A stretch of 64,000 bases of DNA, taken from the NCBI GenBank assembly GCA_964016885.1, contig OZ024755.1:7068001-7132000 (forward strand). Reading direction: 5' to 3'. Below, piece by piece: positions 4,382-47,693 of this stretch (the first letter of the stretch is position 1; each line of letters begins with the position of its first letter). The notes under the pieces were generated by a model. That model made no database searches, had not been told where the DNA came from, and saw only the letters and a program-made list of their open reading frames with translations. The translations under genes were made by a program, and so were the position numbers. Origin of the DNA: Eledone cirrhosa. Its lineage: Eukaryota.

Positions 4382-4651
4382 AATGGAATAATTGTCTTAT
4401 GTTGTTTATTACATAATTGTTTCTACTTTTTGGCACAAGGCCAGCAATTATCTCAGTGTATTACTGGTACTTTATTTTATCGACCCCGTAAGGATGAAAG
4501 ACAAAGTTAACCTCGGCGGGATTTGGACTCAGTCCGTAAAGGGAAGTAACTCTTTATTACATAATATTATATATTAACTTTGCCTTTCATCCTTACGGGG
4601 TCGAATCCGATATCTGCATTGCTTTATTGTACTACAATAAAACTCACCTCC

Positions 4652-15457: not shown

Positions 15458-15628
15458 CTAGGAAGTAGAAGTGGCCTTTACTGCACTTTTAGATTCAATT
15501 TTAGCAGCAGCTCTTTTGGCCATCTTAATTTTGTGCCTCTCTTCCTTCAATTGACTTCTCTCCTCTTTAGGAATTAGCCTGTTGTGTTTTCGAGCAAACC
15601 GCAGATTCCTCAAATACTTCCTGTCAAC
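15458..15628 (-). CDS. RPL29: 60S ribosomal protein L29 (eL29), last coding exon
   Basis: TAG acceptor, then VDRKYLRNLRFARKHNRLIPKG...KATSTS*. AATAAA on the minus strand at 15412-15417. Confidence 0.93.
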   Translation of the reverse strand, partial: VDRKYLRNLRFARKHNRLIPKEERSQLKEERHKIKMAKRAAAKIESKSAVKATSTS

Positions 15629-15959: not shown

Positions 15960-16024
15960 ACCATTCATAGACGGGCATCGGCTTCTTTTTGGTCTGTAAA
16001 TACCATTACGGTGAGCTTTACTGT
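15960..16024 (-). CDS. RPL29: RPL29 coding exon 2
   Basis: TTCCAG acceptor and GTAAGT donor; encodes (N)SKAHRNGIYRPKRSRCPSMNG; phase joins both neighbouring exons. Confidence 0.93.
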
Positions 16025-16101: not shown

Positions 16102-16240
16102 GTATGTCCCTGGGGTTAAACGGCACACCACAGTCAATGTATGACTGAAATGCTTCCTGTCCAGGGTTTAATGTCATCTCCTATAAATGATACTGGCAGA
16201 TATGTAGTCATTAGAGAGGCTACACTCCGTGGCTGGAGAT
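16102..16240 (-). ncRNA. SNORA65: H/ACA snoRNA, SNORA65/snR34-like, copy 1
   Basis: Two hairpins, ANANNA candidates in the hinge, ACA 3 nt from the end. Pocket 1 GCCAC/GCCAGT fits 28S ACUGGC-Psi-U-GUGGC; pocket 2 GA(C/T)AGGAA/GCCG fits CGGC-Psi-C-UUCCUAUC. Confidence 0.85.
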
Positions 16241-16532
16241 ATTGGGATAAATCTATGATCATTACAGCACTATATTATACAGTACCATGTGTACACATGG
16301 TGTATATATATATTCATAGGGGGCAACACAAGTCCAAAGGATTTGAGAGTCACTAGACACTTGATGCAAGAAATCCTTGCCATATACACGGGTATAATAA
16401 TGTGGCACACATTAGGTTAGAATCTTCTTCAATGTTAAAAGCATGGAGTAATAATTGAAGAAAAAGTACATATATATAATAGTAGAGTTGTAGTTTATAG
16501 CACTGAGAAAAATAAAAAATTCAATTTTAGGA

Positions 16533-16658
16533 GATTTGTCCCGAGTGGACGCCTGTCACCAAAATCAATATTATGACTGTGGCAGGGTTTTAATATCTCG
16601 AAGGAGGCTAACAGATATGCAGTAATTAGCGAGGCACACACTAACCTCACCTGGATAT
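16533..16658 (-). ncRNA. SNORA65-derived H/ACA paralogue (family B), degenerate copy with a deletion
   Basis: Homologous scaffold, ATATTA H box and ACA retained; the second hairpin is partly deleted. Confidence 0.4.
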
Positions 16659-17057
16659 ATTGATAAATCAGTGATCAATAACAAATAATACAGTAGAAAG
16701 AAATTATTATAGATTATCCACTAACAAATCTTATGTACAAAAAAAACTATACACCATTATCTTATTTTATACTGTTTTAATCCTTTAACCACTTAGCATT
16801 TAAACCGGCCAGAATTCTTTCACTGATAAAAGATAAACAAATCTTGAAACAGCACTGCATGACATTCCCAAAATGTACTGGCAACTCTGATATACTCACA
16901 AAGAAAATAAGAAAAAGTTTTTGTTACGAAAAAATATTTTTCTTTGGTAGCACGGCTACCCATGCTTCTTGTATATAAACAGATATGTATTTCTTTATAT
17001 ATACTTCTATTATGCTTAAATACTGTCTTAGTTCTACCACCAATTAATTCTGATATT

Positions 17058-17195
17058 GAATGTTCCTGGGGTTAAACGGCACACCTCAGTCAACGTATGA
17101 CTGAATGCTTCCTGTCCAGGGTTTAATGTCATCTCCTATAAATGATACTGGCAGATATGTAGTCATTAGAGAGGCTACACTCCGTGGCTGGAGAT
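17058..17195 (-). ncRNA. SNORA65: H/ACA snoRNA, SNORA65-like, copy 2
   Basis: Near-identical to copy 1, boxes and pockets retained. Confidence 0.8.
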
Positions 17196-17265
17196 ATTGG
17201 GATAAATCTATGAACATTACAACACTATATTATAAAGTACCATGTGCACTGAACATTATATATAC

Positions 17266-17342
17266 AGGGTGTCCCGCAAAAATGTATATGTACTTCAACA
17301 GAATTCTAATCAAAGTGTGCATATACTTTTTAGGGACACTAT
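17266..17342. mobile_element. Tiny Tc1/mariner-type MITE (second copy ~18449-18525)
   Basis: TA-flanked CAGGGTGTCCCGCAAAAA ... TTTTTAGGGACACT ends; a related end lies at ~14250-14268. Confidence 0.55.
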
Positions 17343-17632
17343 ATATATATTCAAGGGGGCAACAAGTCGAAAGGATTTGATGAAGTTACTAGACACTTAA
17401 TGCAAGAAATTCTTGCCATATATATGCCTACCACAAACTATCAAACCCAAGCTGGTATGGAAATTGTGGGTTAAATTATGCGGCACACATGTAGGTAAGT
17501 TAGAATCTTCAATGTTAAAAGTATGAAGTAAATAATTTGTTTAATGTCCATATTCCATGCTAGCACGGTTTATAAATGATAATAGACTTGTAGTTTTTAG
17601 CACCGAGAATACTAAAAAAAAATTAGTTTTAG

Positions 17633-17769
17633 ATTTGTCCCCTGGCAAGATGTCACCAAAATCAATATTATGACTGAGATGACCCTGACCGCAGGGTTTT
17701 AATATCTCCAAGGAGGCCAGCAGATATGCAGTCATTAGGGAGGCTACACACCAACCTCACCTGGATATA
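17633..17769 (-). ncRNA. SNORA65-derived H/ACA paralogue (family B)
   Basis: Stems TCCAGG/CTTGGA and CCCTG/CAGGG, H box ATATTA, ACA+3. Pocket 2 is CGGTCAGG / ATCTTGC. Confidence 0.55.
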
Positions 17770-18241
17770 TTGACAGAGGTCAGAGTGGGTCTACACGGAT
17801 GCCCCCCCCCCCCCCCATATATATGTTTTGCCGTCTGAAGAACTCAGGCTATCATAACTGATAGTCCTCAGTGAAATATGTACAACAGAGTTTTAAATAA
17901 CCCAGAATCAACTGAATATGGCCTCCAATCTTTTATTAATATATATATATTCTAATAAGTATGAATCAAAGTTGTAGCTGCCTTACAGCAGGTGCCCCTA
18001 TATATACTCATACATACCCTGCTAAAAACAGTTCTGGTTCTATCAATCACAAACCACACACATGTGGGGAACAATACAGCTATGTTAAACAAGCCTATTT
18101 CTTGCAAAGTGAAAAAGAAATCTATTTATTTACCACTGCTTCAACAAGTTTACAAACTACTTTAGGAGTTATGAACCTGGTGTTATACTTCTATTATGGT
18201 TAAAAACTGTCTTAGTTCTACCACCAATTAATTCTGATATT

Positions 18242-18379
18242 GAATGTTCCTGGGGTTAAACGGCACACCACAGTCAACGTATGACTGAATGCTTCCTGTC
18301 CAGAGTTTAATGTCATCTCCTATAAATGATACTGGCAGATATGTAGTCATTAGAGAGGCTACACTCCGTGGCTGGAGAT
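18242..18379 (-). ncRNA. SNORA65: H/ACA snoRNA, SNORA65-like, copy 3
   Basis: Near-identical to copy 2. Confidence 0.8.
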
Positions 18380-18748
18380 ATTGGGATAAATCTATGAACA
18401 TTACAACACTATATTATAAAGTACCATGTGCACTGAACATTATATATACAGGGTGTCCCGCAAAAATGTATATGTACTTCAACAGAATTCTAATCAAAGT
18501 GTGCATATACTTTTTAGGCACACTATATATATATATTCAAGGGGGCAACAAGTCGAAAGGATTTGATGAAGTTACTAGACACTTAATGCAAGAAATCCTT
18601 GCCATATACAGGGATAATAATGTAGGTTAAGTCAGAATCTTCTTCAATGTTAAAAGCATGGAGTAATAATTGAAGAAAAAGTACATATATATAATAGTAG
18701 AGTTGTAGTTTATAGCACTGAGAAAACTAAAAAATTCAATTTTAGGAG

Positions 18749-18893
18749 ATTTGTCCCCTGAGGGGTCCGAATGCCTGTCACCAAAATCAATATTATGACT
18801 GAGATGACGGCATGGTAGGGTTTTAATATCTCCAAGGAGGCCAGCAGATATGCAGTCATTAGGGAGGCTACACACTAACCTCACCTGGATATA
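18749..18893 (-). ncRNA. SNORA65-derived H/ACA paralogue (family B)
   Basis: Same scaffold and boxes. Pocket 2 is ACCATGCC / AGGCATTCGGACC. Confidence 0.5.
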
Positions 18894-19559
18894 TTGATAA
18901 ATCAATGATCAATAACAAATAATAAAGTAGAAATAAGTTACTATAGATTACTCACTAATAAATCTTATGTACAAAAAAACTATACACCATTAACTATCTC
19001 ACTGGATCCTCCTCAGTATTAACCCTTTAGCATTTACATCATATATGCTATTGTAAGGTAGACACTTTATTTCACACAACATCGAATCTATGAGATTTGG
19101 ATATTTATTTTGAGAACAATACCTAAACATAAGTATGAGCAGCCGGTTTGAACAGAAAGAGGTGAGAGAATTGAACCATAAAATCAATAGTAATATGATA
19201 AAACCTCTTCTTACAAGTATGCTGAGACACCTTTTCAAGCCCTTCTAGTCAATCGCAATAGCACCCCCTCCCAGTATGGTATTTTATAACTTTTTCTGAA
19301 ACTGCTGAGTTAAACAACTAGTACGTAATATCTAGGAAGTATAATTTAGAAATATACCTAGCCTGACGTCTTGTCAAGATGTTTCTTCAAAAGAGATATT
19401 TATCTAAAAAATCTTCCATCGTAATTTTATGGAAGAACTTTTGATAAATTGTGCCAAACATTAAAGTTAGGGTAACAGTTAATCATTATTATTATTTTTA
19501 ATTATTGCATGACTAAGTTATAGAATTTAATTAAAAGATAAGTTATTAGAACAAAGAGG

Positions 19560-19698
19560 TTATGTCCCTGGGGTTAAACGGCACACCACAGTCAATGTAA
19601 GACTGAAATGCTTCCTATCCAGGGTTTAATGTCATCTCCTATAAATGTTACTGGCAGATATGTAGTCATTAGAAAGGCTACACTCCGTGGCTGGAGAT
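19560..19698 (-). ncRNA. SNORA65: H/ACA snoRNA, SNORA65-like, copy 4
   Basis: Pocket variant GATAGGAA; similarity to the other copies stops at the predicted 5' end. Confidence 0.85.
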
Positions 19699-20410
19699 GT
19701 AAAATAAAATTTTTCTTTTTTACTTAGGGAGGGCCAACAGCAGTGAACTCTGCTAAAGACATTCAAGGAACAGGTGAGGATTTGAACTAATTTCACAAAG
19801 GGATGAACAGAACAAGCTCTAATGATTTCACCAGTCCACAATCCTAGATTGGGAACCTAACTCTTTAGATACCAATTTGCCAAAAACCAACCCTGGTTCT
19901 TTATTTAAATTTTCGAATTTTTATATAACAATGTTAGTTTACACTTTTAATAATGAGAAATTATAAAATTTAAGATAATCCTCAGAAATTAATTGAAGCA
20001 GAGAATTTCATTAGAAACAGTCACAAAAGGGTCAATTTATCCATTTTGAAAGGGTGAAAAGCAGATAAAATTGAATGATCCAGGGGCCATTTGCATACAT
20101 ACATTTCAATTTGGACTTTGTTGTTTCTACAGCTGGATGCTCTTTCTAACAACCACTTTACAGAGTGTAGTGGGTGCATTGTTTTGTGGTGGCAGCACTA
20201 AAGAGGTTGTCATGTCCTATACACACGCCAAAGGAATGCCTTAAATGGTTCCGTTACAGTGATTGTAGTTGTTAAAAGCAGAATCAATAACTGGAATGAT
20301 ATACAGGTCTCTGGATATAAAAACCTGAGATATAAAGATGGAATTGCTGACGGGTTACTTCTTCAAGGATAATGAAAAGAGATGACATTTGGCTCTTCAC
20401 CCGACTTTAA

Positions 20411-20621
20411 CCCTTTAGCATTTAAACCGGCTGTACCTGGCCAGAATTCTCTCACCTCTTTCTATTGAAACTGGCTGCTCATACTGATGTAAAGGCATTG
20501 TTCTCAAAATAAATAACATTAAAATCTCGTTGATTCGATACTATGTGATATAATTATGTAAGATAAAGCTTTTACCACAAAAATACAGTAGTATATGTAG
20601 AGTAATGTAAATGCTAATGGG
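20411..20621. mobile_element. piggyBac-like MITE
   Basis: TTAA-CCCTTTAGCATTT ... AAATGCTAATGGG-TTAA. Partial copies at ~15196, ~19020, ~26290-26380, ~28048 and ~59370-59580. Confidence 0.65.
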
Positions 20622-20678
20622 TTAAACTCAGCTTACAAATAAGCACAGACACATGTATGCATGGTAATGTATTTAAAA

Positions 20679-20811
20679 CAATGTATGATGCAATGTGACA
20701 TCTGGTGTGATCATGGTGAAACCCAGAAAACAAAGAAACATCACATTAATTTAGCATCCAACTTTCCCCCCAACTGTGACATAGAGGCCAGAGTGGGTCT
20801 ACAGGGATGCC
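20679..20811 (-). ncRNA. Box H/ACA snoRNA candidate (family C), target unassigned
   Basis: Hairpin 1 closed by GCATCC/GGATGC, H box AAATTA, hairpin 2 closed by GTGATG/CATCAT, ACA+3. Similarity to the 25526-25660 copy ends exactly 3 nt past ACA. Confidence 0.7.
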
Positions 20812-21649
20812 CCCCCCCTTCACACACAACACTCTTCTTTTACAGTTTTCATCCACCCAAATTTCACTGACAAGGTAATAGTATCTTACACTTGCCTGAG
20901 GCACAAGCTAGTGCCCCCCCCCCCCATAAGGTGATAAAAGCCGACCGTGACCTCTGGCGTCGCGCAGTAATACAGAATACCCGACTACAAGCCGAAGCTG
21001 AAGCATATAGACAATATATGCCCCCCCCCCCCACTGCAAAGTAGCAGTGTAGGCGCCAGGGAATAAAACCACCCACCACTCACTGTAAATGAGGTTGGTG
21101 TTAGGAAGGGCATCCAGCTGTAGAAGTCAAGCCAGAATCAGTTCCCGTATGAGTAAGGCATGGTCAGCCGACTGGACACTGCCCACAAGACAACCCGTCT
21201 AACCCATGCTAGCGTGGAAGAACGGACGTAAAACAGTGATGATTTTCATGCTGGCATAGAGATTAACTTGATCATACATTTCATATACCCACTATCCCTA
21301 CTCCATCCTCCCACTCCCACCCTTTCTCTGTAAAGTTATGTTGGTACCACAACAGCCAACTAATGAGATCGAGATTGTGTAGGTGTCACGACAAAAAAAA
21401 AACACCCCACGCTGTAATGTGGGCCGTGTAGGTAACACAGTAAAAAGTTCCCAGTCCACACTGTAAATGTGCTTGGTGTTAGGAAGAGCATCTAGCCGTA
21501 GAAAACTCGCCAGATAGTACTATACGAGCGAGACATGCTCACTCGACCAATCTTGCCTCAAGTGGGACAACTCCTGTCTAACCCATGCTAGCGTGAAAGA
21601 TAGACGTTAAACGATGATAATTAGGAGGAAAAAGAAAAAAAAAACTTAC

Positions 21650-21686
21650 TCTGGTTGTGATTCGTATGATTCTTCGACTTAGCCAT
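21650..21686 (-). CDS. RPL29: RPL29 coding exon 1
   Basis: Encodes MAKSKNHTNHNQ (the eL29 N-terminal signature) plus 1 nt, with a GTAAGT donor. A TTTCAG acceptor puts the exon start at 21705. Confidence 0.95.
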
Positions 21687-22645
21687 CTTGTGGAACTAAT
21701 TATATCTGAAATATATAAAATAAACATTTGTAAACCTAGCAAACTTATTAACACCAACATAGATACAACTGAAAATATCGTTTACAAAATAAATAATTTA
21801 AATATTAAATTAAATCAGGTGTTTACATTATATTTATTATTGTATTTTCATGGTCAACACTTTATTTCACATAATTATCTCATATATAGAATCTAGGAGA
21901 TTTTGATATTCATTTTGAGACTACTTAAGCATTGGTATGCATGACCAGTTACAACCGGTTTGAACAGAAAAAGGTGAAAGAATTCTGGCCAGTTTAAATG
22001 TGGTGACACTACTTATAAGTTGCTCTTGTGAAATAAATATTTGCCCTCGTGAGAAAATACCTATCTTAGCACACGCACACACACACACACGTGTATGTAT
22101 GTGTGCAAGATAAACTATACCACGCTTAGAACATCTTATACTGCTTTAACATAACATGGGAACATTAATTTATGTAGGAATGCTACTAACACTACACTGA
22201 TGAGAAAGAGATTATCAGTGCATTCGTTAATAAAGGGTCACTGATTACAAAGAATCTAATATAACAATCTAAGATATATATCTACAATTAAACATTGTGT
22301 ATTAGCAGTACAGATACTAAAGAAAGAAAAAAATAAAATTAAAATAATACTCCTCACCAATTTATTTAAAATATTTTAGCCAGCAGCCTCCTCTCTAAAA
22401 CCTTATTTCCCAGCCTGGCAGAGAAGCAGTTCTACTGGCTGAAAGCTTAAAGAAGGGAGAGGAGAGGGAGATACAATGGAATAGGCCTGTCTGACAGTCT
22501 GTGAGTGGGATATCAATTGCCCCCTCCAGCAACCAAATGGAATAATCTGAAGACTTAATACAAAAAGAACTATCAACAGTGTGCGTGCTTCAGACACAAG
22601 GAAGACATTGGTTGTACAGGAACAGGACAATGTGTACAAAGTAAC

Positions 22646-22811
22646 ATGGCAAGGGATGATCCACTTACACATATTCAATCTGGCACTAAAGACATTGACA
22701 AAGAGAACTTGTCCAGTTCTACCAGTGCCTTGCTTCATAATGAAACGGAATTGGTTGTTACATATATCTCAGTTACCCTTATAGGATTTATCATCATTGC
22801 AGGAACTACAG
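22646..22811 (+). CDS. Class A GPCR exon 1 (N-terminus and TM1)
   Basis: N-glycosylation sequons NLS and NET, hydrophobic TM1. The G|GTAAGC donor splices in phase to 27600 and rebuilds the TM1 'GN' motif (GTTGNILVILAV). Confidence 0.8.
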
Positions 22812-23341
22812 GTAAGCCCTCCATGATTCAATTTTTCAGAACTTGTTGCAATACAAAATGTTCAACTATTCTATTTTAGATTGCTAAACTAATTCAACAT
22901 CAACATGTCCAAGATCACTTGATTCTTATACAAAATATCTCATTAACGCTTTCATCACATTTCTGAATCACTGCCTATGATTTTGAAAATAATTTAAACA
23001 CATTGGCAGTGAATTTCATTAGAAATATACTAAGTTTTTAGATAAATATAAACATTTAAAATAAAATTTTGCACTGTAGAACCAGAGCTGGTTTCAGATT
23101 TTATAATCGTACATAAGATGCTTTATTGGTAAATTATGATCTATACATAATTTATGAACTAGTTAATTTACTAAGTCCAATTTTTTTTTTATTGATTTTC
23201 AAAAGTAATTAAAAACCATGCATTCCTAAACATATTGTAATTAGTTTGTTTTTTTTACATACAATATGTGATTTTTCTAATAGATGCTTCTTAAGTAACA
23301 GTATATTGTTGAAGGTTAATTACTAAATGAAAATGGCAATT

Positions 23342-23484
23342 GTATGTCCCTGGGGTTAAACGGCACACCACAGTCAATGTATGACTGAAATGCTTCCTGT
23401 CCAGGATTTAAGATTTAATGTCATCTATAAATGTTACTGGCAGATATGTAGTCATTAGAGAGGCTACACTCCGTGGCTGGAGAT
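23342..23484 (-). ncRNA. SNORA65: H/ACA snoRNA, SNORA65-like, copy 5 (hinge indels, possibly impaired)
   Basis: Pockets intact; a short insertion and a 3-nt deletion lie around the hinge. Confidence 0.6.
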
Positions 23485-23853
23485 ATTTACATTATAATTA
23501 CATTGTGTGTTGAATATATCAATTAGTTAAAAACACTTAAAAGTAAGCAACTTTCTATGGTTAAATCACCAACTGTAGCTTATCGTGCCACCAGCACTAC
23601 AAAGAGGCTATCAAATGAAAACTAGACTGGCAGAATCTCTTCTGAACACTTACACACAAACAATTAACATATGTGCAATTTTAAAGGAACTGATAACAGT
23701 CAGGTCTAAAATATGTACCATGTTATGTGATTTAGCATGAAAACAAAAGCCTTTTGATAAAATAAGGGTAACATATCAGTTAATCATTATTATTATTTTT
23801 AATTATTGCATGTTATAGAATTTAATTAAAAGATAAGTTATTAGAACGAAGAG

Positions 23854-23992
23854 GTATGTCCCTGGGGTTAAACGGCACACCACAGTCAATGTAAGACTGA
23901 AATGCTTCCTATCCAGGGTTTAATGTCATCTCCTATAAATGTTACTGGCAGATATGTAGTCATTAGAGAGGCTACACTCCGTGGCTGGAGAT
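23854..23992 (-). ncRNA. SNORA65: H/ACA snoRNA, SNORA65-like, copy 6
   Basis: Pocket variant GATAGGAA; boxes intact. Confidence 0.85.
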
Positions 23993-24076
23993 ATTGGGAT
24001 AAATCTTATGAACATTACAGCACTATACTATACAGTACCATGTGTACACATGGTGTGTGTATATATATATCATCAT

Positions 24077-24116
<40 letters not shown>

Positions 24117-24261
24117 GGGGCAACACAAGTCAAAGGGTTTGAGAAAGTCACTAGGCACTTGATGCAAGAAATCCTTGCCATATACAGGGATAATAATGTA
24201 GGTTAAGTCAGAATCTTCTTCAATGTTAAAAGCATGGAGTAATAATTAAAGAAAAAGCTTA

Positions 24262-24296
<35 letters not shown>

Positions 24297-24401
24297 GGAA
24301 TACTGTTGGCTTCTTGCTACAATAATTTCTATACTTTATATATATATAAGTAGACTTGTAGTTTATAGCACTGAGAAAACTAAAAAATTCAATTTTAGGA
24401 G

Positions 24402-24541
24402 ATTTGTCCCCTGAGTGAATGCCTGTCACCAAAATCAATATTATGACTGAGATGACAGTGTGGCAGGGTTTTAATATATCCAAAAACGCCAGTAGATATG
24501 CAGTCATTAGGGAGGCTACACACTAACCCCACCTGGATATA
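24402..24541 (-). ncRNA. SNORA65-derived H/ACA paralogue (family B)
   Basis: Same scaffold and boxes. Pocket 2 is CCACA / GCATTCACT. Confidence 0.5.
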
Positions 24542-24901
24542 TTGATAAATCAGAAATAATACAGTAGAAATAAATCACTATAGATTATCCAACAAATCTT
24601 ATGTACAAAAAAACTATACACCATTATCTTATTTTATATTGTTTTAATCCTTTAACCATTTAGCATTTAAACTGGCCAGAATTCTCTCACCACTTTCACT
24701 GATAAAAGATAAACAAATCATGAAACAGCACCGTATGACATACTCAAAATATATATTCAGAGGAAATTAGACAAAAAAATATTTTCTTCGGCAGCAAGGC
24801 TACTCATGTTTCTTCTATATAAACAGATATGTATTTCTTTATATATACTTCTATTATGCTTAAATACTGTCTTAGTTCTACCACCAATTAATTCTGATAT
24901 T

Positions 24902-25040
24902 GAATGTCCCTGGGGTTAAACGGCACACCACAGTCAATGTATGACTGAAATGCTTCCTGTCCAGGGTTTAATGTCATCTCCTATAAATGTTACTGGCAGA
25001 TATGTAGTCATTAGAGAGGGTACATTCCGTGGCTGGAGAT
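24902..25040 (-). ncRNA. SNORA65: H/ACA snoRNA, SNORA65-like, copy 7
   Basis: Boxes and pockets intact. Confidence 0.82.
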
Positions 25041-25525: not shown

Positions 25526-25660
25526 CAATGTATGATGCAATGTGACATCTGGTGTGATCATTATGAAACCCAGAAAACAAAGAAACAACATCACATTAAT
25601 TTAGCATCCAACTTTCCCCCCAACAATGACAAAGAGGTCAGAGTGGGTCTACAGGGATGC
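25526..25660 (-). ncRNA. Box H/ACA snoRNA candidate (family C), copy 2
   Basis: Same boxes and closing stems as 20679-20811. Confidence 0.7.
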
Positions 25661-26096
25661 ACCCCCCCCCCATATATATGTTTTGCCGCCTGAAGAACTC
25701 AGGCTATCATAACTGATAGTCCTCAGTGAAATATGTACAACAGAGTTTTAAATAACCCAGAATCAACTGAATATGGCCTCCAATCTTTTATTAATATATA
25801 TATATTCTAATAAGTATGAATCAAAGTTGTAGCTGCCTTACAGCAGGTGCCCCTATATATACTCATACATACCCTGCTAAAAACAGTTCTGGTTCTATCA
25901 ATCACAAACCACACACATGTGGGGAACAATACAGCTATGTTAAACAAGCCTATTTCTTGCAAAGTGAAAAAGAAATCTATTTATTTACCACTGCTTCAAC
26001 AAGTTTACAAACTACTTTAGGAGTTATGAACCTGGTGTTATACTTCTATTATGGTTAAAAACTGTCTTAGTTCTACCATCAACTAATTCTGATATT

Positions 26097-26235
26097 GAAT
26101 GTCCCTGGGGTTAAACGGCACACCACAGTCAATGTATGACTGAAATGCTTCCTGTCCAGAGTTTAATGTCATCTCCTATAAATGATACTGGCAGATATGT
26201 AGTCATTAGAGAGGCTACACTCCGTGGCTGGAGAT
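26097..26235 (-). ncRNA. SNORA65: H/ACA snoRNA, SNORA65-like, copy 8
   Basis: Boxes and pockets intact. Confidence 0.82.
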
Positions 26236-27599
26236 ATTGGGATAAATCTATGATCATAGCACTACAGTAGGATTTACACTCAGAAGTTCATCAAAATTTC
26301 GTAGATTCCATATTACATTTATCTATTTTGAGAACAATACCTTAATGTCAGTATGAGTAGCCGGTTTAAATGCTAAAGGGGTAATAAGGGTTGTTGCATA
26401 AAAATTATAAAGGTTAAGATTTTAGATAAAATAAACACTTTGAAATAAAGTTTTATGCTGTAAAACAAGGGGCAGTTTCAGGTGATAATAAAAGGATTTA
26501 AATATTCAAGTAAACCCCTTAACTTCACAGGAGGCTGGCTAAACCTATGCAGGTGTTTGCACTAACAACAAATAAGCATCCGAGATATTTTTTTAAAGGA
26601 AAAGAAACATGACAGCCCCACAACACAGATATATTAAAACCAAATCTAAATTTTAGATTCCCCAACTTCCTTATAGAATAATTTTGAAAATACCTCTAAC
26701 TACATTTACTAAAAATAAGTCCAGTTTGAATTATTGAATACAGTAAAGTTCCTTTTATCAGTGTTAGGTGTATAAGATGTTTAAAGTGCTAATCCCAATT
26801 AATATTCTTCAAGGAGTAAAACCCTTTCATATCTAAAATTCAAATCAAGACCTTACACACCTCATATACTGCAAGCTGAGAAAGAGATAAGTAAATACTT
26901 AAAAAGATAACCATGTAAATTATCAGCAAGCATATTCTAAAGTTACCATAGACAGGAGCATCTAAGAAGTTGATTTAGTTTTGAGCCTTAAATAACAGCT
27001 GGCATACCAACATTTTAATATCAGGGATGACTAAATATTAAAAACATTCACTGAATTCAATATTAAGAAGATTAGCAAATATGGTGAAAGTCATTTAAAA
27101 TAAATTTACCAAATACAAGGTAAAGGGTTGCTATTAATTGTTTCTAATTTTGGCACAAGGCCAGCAATTAACCAGTGCATTACTGGTACTTTATTTTATC
27201 GACCCCGTAAGGACGAAAGGCAAAGTTAACTTCTAGGGATTTGAACTCAGAATGGCAAGGGCCGTCTGAAACTATGCGTCAAAGCATGGCGTCCGACCCT
27301 CTACCGATACTGCCAATCCACCGCCCTTACGGTACTAATAATACTGAAGTGCAAGTGACCACAAGAGAATTACACATTAAATTCAAACCTTGCTAACATT
27401 GATTTAGTATTTATCATATATAAAGTCCATTATATTCCACATTACCAAGACATCCTTAATAAAAACAAATAGATACCCAATTAGAAATATGGTAATGAAA
27501 GGGTTCATTTCATGTTTTATGTGACCATTCTAATTCCAAATATACATATATAGTGAAATATAATGATGGAAATTATCAAAGTTTTCTCTATTTTCACAG

Positions 27600-27803
27600 G
27601 AAACATCTTGGTTATTCTGGCTGTGAAGACGTACAAGAAATTACAGACGCCTTCCAATATATTTATTGTTAATCTCAGTATAGTGAACTTATTGTTTGAT
27701 CTCTTTGTCTTACCATTCCATGCTTATACCAATATGAACAAAGCTGTAGGAATAAGCCCACTTCTATGCAGGCTTATTGCAGTTGTCGACTATGCACTAA
27801 CAG
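27600..27803 (+). CDS. Class A GPCR exon 2 (TM1 end to TM3)
   Basis: TTTTCACAG acceptor; encodes LQTPSNIFIVNLSIVNLL (TM2) and the TM3 Cys (LCR); GTGAGT donor. Confidence 0.9.
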
Positions 27804-28441
27804 GTGAGTAATTATATCAGTTTTATACTTGCTGCATCATGAGACGACACTTTTTGAGTTGTTTATGCAGGACGATAATCGTATATAAGAACCATATGTT
27901 AAGTTATTTTAATAACAAAATAATTCAAGTAAATTCCTCAAGTTTCTTAATTTCAATGAGGAATAGTCACAACAGTTAAAATCCATTTAAAATTGATTAA
28001 TGTAAATTGTTAAATATTAGGTCAAATTATAGACTGCTATCAAAATTTAACCCTTTAGCATTTACATTACTCATTATATACTATTGTATTTTTGTGGTAA
28101 AGACTTTATCTCAAATAAACTATGATGTTTTGATATTTTATTTTGAGAATACATAACGTTGGTATGAGTGGTCGTTTTGTACAGAAAAGCAGAGAGAATT
28201 CTGGTCGGATCTGGCCGGTTTAATGGGGATTCTAAAAAAAAACATTCTGCCAAAATCAATCAAATAGTAAATCTGTTATCATATATTTAAATCTTCCATC
28301 ATAATCCAATACAAAAACTTTTAGTTAAGTAATGTTCTAAAACTTTATTATTTTCAAAATTATTTGGAAAATTGTAGACAAGTGTATTTCATAAGAAATA
28401 TGATAACAAAAGGGTTTTAAACATTTTTTATTTCTTTGCAG

Positions 28442-29208
28442 GCACAACCATTATGACAATAATCTTAATAGCCTACAATCGTTACAAACTGGTGGCTAAC
28501 TACCACAAATATATTGACCATTTCAACCAAACAAACGTTGCAGCAATGTTGTGTGTGGCCTGGTTATTACCACTGATGTGTCTAGTGCCACCCCTCTTAG
28601 AAGTCTGGGGTAAATTTGGTTATGTCGACCAACTCTCAACATGTAATCTATTTGAAGATGAGCTGCTTTTCAAAGACACGTTACTCCTACTGCGCACTCT
28701 CACACCGAGTCTCCTTATCATCTATTTCTACATACGCATCTGCCAAGCTTCAAAAGCCAGCCTCTTGAGAATGCCTTCTTTAAAAGATTCTATCAGTTCA
28801 CAACAGCGAGAACGGAACGAGAAACACATGACTAAGATGGTGTTAACTATTATCTCCCTCTTCATCATATTCTACTTCCCCTGTACAATTACTGCTATCA
28901 TAGACCTCTATTACAAACTCTCGAAACCCCATCACCTTTTCTGCAGACTCTGTATATATTTTGGCAGTGCTGTAAATCCACTAATATATGGTTTAATGAA
29001 TTCACAATTTAGCAAAGCATATAAAAAACTTATAAGCTGCAGTCTTGAAAATATGAAGCCAAATATTCCACCTGTAACTGTCATCCACTTGAACACTCTG
29101 ATAATGAAACCAACCTCACATATGGGGCTGAGTTTCGTATCTATCCTACCTAAAAACACTGATACACTCACATCAAACATTTTAATAAATGAAAAACAAA
29201 TTCCTTAA
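28442..29208 (+). CDS. Class A GPCR exon 3, Moody/Tre1/melatonin-receptor-like (NRY)
   Basis: TTTGCAG acceptor; IAYNRY, TM4 W, ECL2 Cys, FYFP in TM6, NPLIY in TM7. Spliced CDS is 1137 nt (378 aa). Confidence 0.9.
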
Positions 29209-29767: not shown

Positions 29768-29856
29768 TGAATCAGTGCGCAGTTGACTACAGGTAAGCCT
29801 CTACATTAAAATATAGGGGGCCTATCAGAATCGATCGTCATATATCATCATATTCA
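29768..29856 (-). ncRNA. Box C/D snoRNA, copy 1
   Basis: Terminal stem TGAAT/ATTCA, C box ATGATGA, D' CTGA and D CTGA. The D' guide GACGATCGATT is complementary to conserved 28S AAUCGAUCGUC. Confidence 0.85.
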
Positions 29857-30818: not shown

Positions 30819-30912
30819 ACAGTGAATCAGAGCGCAGTTGACTACAGGTGACCTCCACCATAAATGGTAAGGACCATCAGAATCGATCGTCATTTGTCAT
30901 CATATTCACTGT
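30819..30912 (-). ncRNA. Box C/D snoRNA, copy 2
   Basis: 9-bp terminal stem ACAGTGAAT/ATTCACTGT. Boxes and both guides are conserved while the central spacer has diverged. Confidence 0.85.
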
Positions 30913-33725: not shown

Positions 33726-33760
33726 CTTCTTCTCAGTTCTGCAGCAATGGCGGAAAAGGG
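33726..33760 (-). promoter_or_regulatory. RPL29: Probable RPL29 non-coding first exon with 5'TOP/TCT initiator
   Basis: Minus strand TTCCCCCTTTTCCGCCATTGC...GAAGAAG|GTAAGC: a pyrimidine-tract start plus a strong donor. All snoRNA candidates lie between this exon and the RPL29 3' end on the same strand. Confidence 0.7.
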
Positions 33761-33965
33761 GGAATAATCCATGAACAGGAAACAAAAGAGTTATATCTAG
33801 GGAGATAATATATATTACATCCGGTTTTCAATTAAACTCTTCGATATATTTTTTATTTGCTCATTAAATTATGTAACTAGTTGCAATAAATTAAGACATT
33901 TTTCAATCTATAGATTAAAAATATTAATGATATAATTTACAAAAGGGACAAATCAAATACCGAAT

Positions 33966-45932: not shown

Positions 45933-46005
45933 CATCCCTGGTGGGATTCGAACCCACGGCCTCTGGATTAGAAGTCCAGCGCGCTATCCGCTGCGCTACA
46001 GGGAC
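45933..46005 (-). tRNA. tRNA-Arg(TCT), intronless
   Basis: GTCCCTGTAGCGCAGCGGATAGCGCGCTGGACTTCTAATCCAGAGGCCGTGGGTTCGAATCCCACCAGGGATG folds as a cloverleaf; a downstream T run can act as terminator. Confidence 0.95.
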
Positions 46006-47620: not shown

Positions 47621-47693
47621 CATCCCTGGTGGGATTCGAACCCACGGCCTCTGGATTAGAAGTCCAGCGCGCTATCCGCTGCGCTACAGGGAC
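47621..47693 (-). tRNA. tRNA-Arg(TCT), identical second copy
   Basis: Same 73 nt with different flanks; T6 downstream. Confidence 0.95.

Follow-up and report, generated by a model that had tools for sequence, protein, structure and literature searches.

Passages in the published literature indicate that new paralogs of small nucleolar RNAs (snoRNAs) usually arise by intragenic duplication followed by divergence (PMC2653536), that the loss and gain of targets by such duplicates has been documented and tested in frogs (PMC6984369), and that snoRNA copies can degenerate, become orphans, or form the ends of long noncoding RNAs (sno-lncRNAs; reviewed in PMC11028025). For guides of the box H/ACA class, a ruler of ~14 nucleotides (nt) between pocket and box is known (PMC5778458), and pseudouridylation slows when guide and substrate share fewer pairs (PMC6800473). 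Here we examine an H/ACA-like array in a 64,000-nt stretch of the Eledone cirrhosa genome (contig OZ024755.1, positions 7,068,001 to 7,132,000 of the forward strand; hereafter, the window), in which intact SNORA65-like RNAs (A copies) alternate with derived copies (B copies). A first-pass annotation had proposed that the B copies hold a scaffold constant while each acquires a new guide pocket. We instead favor, with moderate confidence, the view that the B copies are SNORA65-like duplicates without 28S pockets and are likely target-less orphan RNAs, with a fold that is probably under weak selection and loop strands whose divergence is likely driven by mutation, as opposed to selection for new targets. 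In the literature searched, which excludes most subscription journals, no article deals with this locus or with H/ACA arrays of cephalopods.

B copies derive from a SNORA65-like RNA and lack its 28S pockets

The parent RNA is represented by the intact, SNORA65-like A1 (16102..16240, minus strand), with pockets that match 28S ribosomal RNA (rRNA). Seven further copies occupy the same strand at 17058-17195, 18242-18379, 19560-19698, 23342-23484, 23854-23992, 24902-25040, and 26097-26235. All eight are nearly identical and have intact 28S pockets, and four of them share one intron. Four of the eight match the SNORA65 family (RF00302) weakly, with E values of 0.9-4.3 and 21-24 bits against a gathering threshold of 70 bits. 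Using the rRNA genes of this genome as targets (18S at L010 5907-8782; 28S at L007 1501-6614), we find that the hairpin-1 pocket of A forms 6 + 5 Watson-Crick pairs with 28S position 4409, the top-ranked site, which none of 60 shuffles equals. The hairpin-2 pocket forms 9-10 pairs with position 4463, which ranks second, the top score being reached in 11 of 60 shuffles. These sites lie 54 nt apart and are presumably the SNORA65/snR34 sites, snR34 being what we take to be the yeast counterpart of SNORA65. The 20 guide nucleotides of A show no differences in any of the seven other array copies. Pocket-to-box spacing in A is long: it is 17 nt in hairpin 2 and, in hairpin 1, either 18 or 23 nt according to which H box is used. 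The rRNA genes are long (18S, 2876 nt; 28S, 5114 nt).

All four B copies are present on the minus strand where the first-pass annotation had placed them, and a genome-wide pattern search (3.0 Gb) returns only these four and a fifth on contig C28 (the C28 copy). B1 (16534..16660; H box 16596-16591, ACA 16539-16537) is damaged in both hairpins: hairpin 2 has a 12-nt deletion, and hairpin 1 has lost 1 nt and contains a C-C mismatch. B2 (17633..17770; H box 17705-17700, ACA 17638-17636), B3 (18749..18894; H box 18829-18824, ACA 18754-18752), and B4 (24402..24542; H box 24477-24472, ACA 24407-24405) are complete. The 5′ flank of B2 has been replaced by a SNORA58-like fragment (36 bp, 17775-17810), while B3 has an upper stem 2 lengthened by ATGCC/GGCAT and a 5-nt insertion on its 3′ side. 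Every array copy retains ATATTA in the hinge, which fits the H-box consensus ANANNA, ACA after hairpin 2 at the predicted 3′ end, and the CAGTCATA..ATTGA motif. The re-paired GTCAT/GTGAC stem and the three pocket strings also occur where claimed; of the long hairpin-1 motif attributed to the copies, B2 and B3 carry an exact version and B1 and B4 deviate from it.

The proposed derivation from a SNORA65-like RNA holds. A and B are 71-77% similar, including the 5′ flank, and the homologous segments comprise the upper stems, the hinge, lower stem 2, and the ACA tail. Both 28S-matching pockets have been lost, as was claimed: neither pocket of B pairs with the sites at 4409 and 4463 with which A pairs. 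None of the four B copies matches an Rfam family at E ≤ 5 or reaches the gathering threshold of RF00302. A covariance model built from A and B gives 18 matches in the window and seven extracted loci to which it was applied, all of them already known, and exact-pattern scans for relatives among metagenome contigs give no match.

The C28 copy belongs to a 1.3-kb B-spacer-A unit (extracted locus L005, ~483-1785) that occupies an intron of a protein-kinase gene, presumably MRCK/DMPK-like, and is oriented in the sense direction. This fifth B is complete, with an ATATTA H box and all scaffold stem pairs kept, and has AGA at the ACA position; the A copy in the same segment is decaying. A B fragment on contig C18 (extracted locus L006, ~1400-1570) consists of hairpin 1 and the hinge, followed by short B-like repeats, and lies between two similar 20-bp direct repeats.

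Hairpin 1 of B is predicted to be closed, with folding on the sense strand only

B is predicted to adopt a hairpin-hinge-hairpin-tail fold. The complete array copies fold on the sense strand only, with z-scores of −3.0 to −4.7 compared to −1.0 to +0.4 for the antisense strand (B2, −3.54 and −0.98; B3, −4.72 and +0.14; B4, −3.03 and +0.35); damaged B1 scores −1.87. A feature that had gone unnoticed is that hairpin 1 (69 nt) closes into a predicted stem of ~25 pairs in all five copies, including the C28 copy, with energies of −18 to −28 kcal/mol for the sense strand and −11 to −15 for the other. No pocket is therefore predicted in hairpin 1.

The picture for hairpin 2 is mixed. For B2 and B3 the prediction is that most of the loop strands pair (mean unpaired probability 0.24-0.32), hairpin 2 of B2 being paired over nearly its whole length, and for B4, 15 nt from the ACA, and the C28 copy that the loop is open (0.49-0.84); since the A control is itself partly paired (0.39 and 0.60), this comparison is not decisive. 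The loop strands of B3 and B4 pair with each other beyond expectation, as only 0.4% and 0.6% of 2000 shuffled strands do as well, and folding with swapped pockets gives native pairs no consistent advantage. The distance from the base of the upper stem to the box at the ACA position is 13, 16, 15, and 14 nt in the four complete copies, compared to 17 nt in A.

A consensus splice donor, CAG/GTGAG (the slash marks the junction), lies 10 nt into B1, B2, and B3 (16650, 17760, and 18884, minus strand), within the predicted closed hairpin 1, and is preceded by an AT-rich, acceptor-like run.

Pocket strands diverge in blocks

The hairpin-2 loop strands are much more divergent than the 3′ flank in seven of eight pairs tested. 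An even spread of substitutions, the pattern that the first-pass annotation had named as counting against its proposal, is thus not seen. Pocket and flank differences number 12/19 and 13/86 for B2-B3, 11/19 and 12/86 for B2-B4, 5/23 and 1/92 for B3-B4, and 14/18 and 12/86 for B2 and the C28 copy (Fisher P between 1e-3 and 2e-7 for these four pairs); the excess is not significant for B1-B4 (2/17 and 3/92, P 0.17). The scaffold differs less than the 3′ flank at P < 0.05 in only two of the eight pairs.

That each complete copy has a separate pocket was overstated: B2 does differ, but B3 and B4 share their segment with B1. Four of the five pocket substitutions between B3 and B4 are of CpG type, compared to 0 of 20 in the flanks, and insertions and deletions have added 5 nt in B3 and removed 12 nt in B1. 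The pocket segments of B1, B3, and B4 are therefore related versions of one, altered by CpG-type substitutions and by indels; two pocket lineages (B1/B3/B4 and B2) exist in the array, and the C28 copy represents a third. Between the three lineages, 11-14 of 18-19 aligned pocket positions differ, while the 3′ flanks differ by 14-17%. A generic mutational hotspot inherited from the parent hairpin can be rejected as the cause: in four dispersed A copies the pockets diverge at background level (8/64 versus 27/206).

No rRNA or small nuclear RNA target is found for B

Three target scans covered 28S, 18S, and 5.8S rRNA together with two or five small nuclear RNAs (snRNAs), the fullest set comprising U1, U2, U4, U5, and U6; 5S, U11, U12, transfer RNA (tRNA), and messenger RNA (mRNA) fell outside them. 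Such a scan had been suggested by the first-pass annotation, and it yields no site for B above shuffles. Against the full set, none of the four hairpin-2 pockets beats shuffled targets, which score as well in 38/60 (B2), 48/60 (B3), 60/60 (B4), and 49/60 (C28 copy) trials. The lowest shuffle value in any scan is 0.07, for an off-register pairing of the C28 copy. The power of the scans is limited, as the control site for hairpin 2 of A ranks only second, with 11 of 60 shuffles at the top score. Antisense local alignment of B to rRNA likewise gives no copy that beats shuffles, under a scoring too loose to be informative. By eye, hairpin 1 of B4 and of the C28 copy can be matched to the 5′ end of 18S over 14 pairs with a 2-nt bulge, within the closed stem.

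B fails to qualify as an H/ACA guide for rRNA or snRNA and as a member of SNORA65. The notion of a distinct new guide in every copy is not supported either, given a pocket lineage shared by three of the four array copies, loops predicted to be mostly paired in B2 and B3, and no rRNA or snRNA site for any of the four pockets.

Stem changes give a modest sign of constraint

The five B copies show 11 stem changes, of which 9 preserve pairing where the expected share is 0.42 (P 0.008), and 7 of 8 do so when changes confined to B1 are excluded (P 0.011); the count omits ambiguous positions beyond column 130. In the four dispersed A copies, 7 of 20 stem changes keep pairing, which differs from B (Fisher P 0.023). 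Within the same C28 segment, A has broken all six of its changed stem positions and B none of three. Strand-biased mutation does not account for the excess of G-U pairs, since the flanks show balanced transitions (18 GU-making versus 19 AC-making). We regard the stem changes as a modest sign of constraint on the fold of B.

A likely route from guide to orphan

On balance we favor a history in which one A copy was duplicated along with its flank and, because it was redundant, gave up guiding. Pairing between its own loop strands would then have closed hairpin 1 and lengthened upper stem 2. The resulting B-spacer-A block would have been copied four times in tandem, with one further copy reaching another chromosome. 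In the B1/B3/B4 lineage, the segment may have been diversified by CpG-type substitutions and short indels; in B2 and the dispersed copy, a small number of block events may have exchanged the strands. After release from introns of RPL29, B transcripts would associate with H/ACA proteins by way of the retained boxes and guide no modification; loop strands freed from guiding and bearing CpG could mutate quickly while the scaffold still binds these proteins.

Competing explanations

Several observations weigh against the orphan interpretation. No cause that we examined accounts for the replacement of both loop strands as blocks in three lineages. CpG-type changes are few between lineages (1/12 and 2/14), and a search of rRNA and of the surrounding 300 nt detects no donor for the pocket strands (0 of 32 tests at p < 0.05). 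Arm-to-arm template switching, although attractive by eye, passes just 2 of 25 shuffle tests at p < 0.05 and is not claimed here as their origin. The covariation test suggested by the first-pass annotation is not significant, with one pair changed on both sides and 92 of 500 shuffles as high. The structure of B was derived from the same sequences on which stem changes were counted, and these changes are clustered, so that independent events number fewer than 11. Intact A copies show six pair-breaking and four pair-keeping stem changes (seven copies, some changes shared). B1 is disrupted, and the canonical ACA is absent from the C28 copy. Part of this evidence would suit dead pseudogenes, in which B is not a stable RNA and its stems are kept by recent duplication, gene conversion, and hairpin-templated DNA repair. 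The 98% identity of a 628-bp array block (17775-18401 versus 25633-26257), the damage to B1 and to the C28 box, and the scaffold that outperforms its flank in only two of eight pairs fit this explanation, as do passages reporting that template switching can make and repair stems (PMC8794818) and that many annotated snoRNA copies are unexpressed (PMC11028025). Copying at the DNA level yields Watson-Crick palindromes, however, whereas B folds on the sense strand only and by means of G-U pairs (11 GU and 0 AC pair types), and its pair-keeping changes exceed those of the dispersed A control. We consider this explanation rather unlikely.

The kept spacing of 13-16 nt, close to the ruler of ~14 nt, favors the guide function originally proposed. 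Here B2, B3/B4, and the C28 copy would be single-pocket guides on a constant scaffold for new targets, probably mRNA, tRNA, or other non-rRNA molecules. The spacing persists in all four complete copies despite a 3′ segment of varying length, a comparison of the three lineages shows ~4-5 times faster divergence in the pocket strands than in the flanks, the loops of B4 and the C28 copy are predicted to be open, and duplicates gain targets in frogs (PMC6984369). Set against this are the lack of any rRNA or snRNA site in scans of limited power, the CpG-type nature of the B3-B4 differences, and the predicted closure of most of the B2 and B3 loops; moreover, the described target switches proceed by point mutation, not by replacement of 12-14 of 18 nt. 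Such guides seem quite improbable. A cassette-like variant, in which an expressed scaffold would use hairpin 1 as a sealed support and exchange the two strands of the hairpin-2 pocket together, in blocks, under a ruler preserved at 13-16 nt, giving at least three guide variants for non-ribosomal RNAs, strikes us as very doubtful. Least probable of all is a role in cis or in precursor processing, where the closed hairpin 1 might hide the strong CAG/GTGAG 5′ splice site of B1-B3, or B might mark a point of cutting, capping (as a sno-lncRNA end), or dicing, and so help to release the A of its unit. B1-B3 supply the only three sense-strand MAG/GTRAG matches in the gene span besides the inferred exon-1 donor, each B lies upstream of an A within one unit, a pocketless scaffold would suffice as an end-cap, and sno-lncRNAs originate from pairs of snoRNAs that share an intron (PMC11028025). 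Yet the three donors share one origin, the opposite strand has five such matches, B4 and the C28 copy have lost the donor consensus, and the B copies occupy internal positions in the intron. The 24,410 characters searched of the octopus microRNA supplements (PMC9699675) contain no B string, a weak test, and the main-text passages of that article do not mention snoRNAs.

The host gene and its surroundings

Pfam matches on translated pieces, an ATG, and splice signals identify the host of the array, which the first-pass annotation of the copies had not named, as the RPL29 gene on the minus strand. Its ATG exon (21650..21705, ATG at 21686) has a start inferred from an AG acceptor. The second coding exon (15960..16024) matches PF01779 (E 5e-08, 33.4 bits, cut-off 27), and the predicted last coding exon (15458..15628, 56 open codons) is placed by frame and acceptor; alone, the latter has no L29e match in Pfam. 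A candidate first non-coding exon (33726..33765) has a pyrimidine-rich start and an AAG/GTAAG donor, features drawn from sequence only.

The intron between the coding exons (21649-16025) holds B1-B3, four A copies, and one SNORA58-like RNA; B1-B3 are thus intronic and in host-strand orientation, as in the box H/ACA class. B4 lies upstream of the ATG exon; given the candidate non-coding exon, it would sit in an intron of the 5′ untranslated region. The repeated unit has the order B-spacer-A, and the observed/expected CpG ratio in the array is 0.32. A spacer element, "C" (16320-16400 and three more copies), occurs in each unit, diverges like the flanks, and shows no fold (z 0.23). Two SNORA58-like RNAs, at 20659..20812 in the same intron as B1-B3 and at 25526-25662 (both minus strand), match RF00418 with E values of 3.1e-05 and 7.8e-04, below the gathering score.

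At 29772-29851 and 30827-30903 (minus strand), two related C/D-box-like elements carrying C, D′, and D motifs fall in the inferred 5′ introns of RPL29 and have no Rfam match at gathering level. A rhodopsin-type G-protein-coupled receptor gene (~27600-29208, plus strand; Pfam 7tm_1, E 3.5e-20) is nested within the 5′ intron inferred for RPL29, on the opposite strand. At 45933-46005 and 47621-47693 (minus strand) lie two tRNA genes of identical sequence, with anticodon UCU; three tRNA matches are the only Rfam matches at gathering level in the window.

Comparison with known systems

If the B copies are indeed orphans, the array would offer a snapshot of a redundant guide RNA losing its role, with parents, derivatives, and a dispersed control in one genome, although the guide-to-orphan process has already been described in vertebrates. 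The locus would gain importance if block replacement proved to be a distinct mutational or selective process. Should B guide non-ribosomal pseudouridylation, each copy would offer a test of how guide specificity is born; block-swapped pockets, if real, would mean cassette-like turnover of guide specificity and not point-wise drift.

B differs from SNORA65 in having no match to RF00302 or any other Rfam family, in pockets that fit neither 28S site, and in a closed hairpin 1. It resembles the cis-duplicated paralogs SNORA10/SNORA64 and the SNORA58-like pug18S-324, which likewise, in the passages cited, arose by intragenic duplication with altered antisense elements and a kept scaffold (PMC6984369, PMC2653536). 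Those RNAs have verified or predicted rRNA targets and often differ by few substitutions, whereas B has no target found and both of its strands are replaced as blocks. As in the H/ACA sno-lncRNAs such as SLERT (PMC11028025), at least two H/ACA elements share an intron, but the B copies are interior to it. B also resembles orphan H/ACA RNAs and snoRNA pseudogenes, which, as the same review outlines, keep boxes and fold without a complement in rRNA or snRNA (PMC11028025). What sets this locus apart from them is that parent and derived copies alternate in tandem, several per intron, with a dispersed A+B segment as an internal control. At most, B behaves as an orphan H/ACA RNA does.

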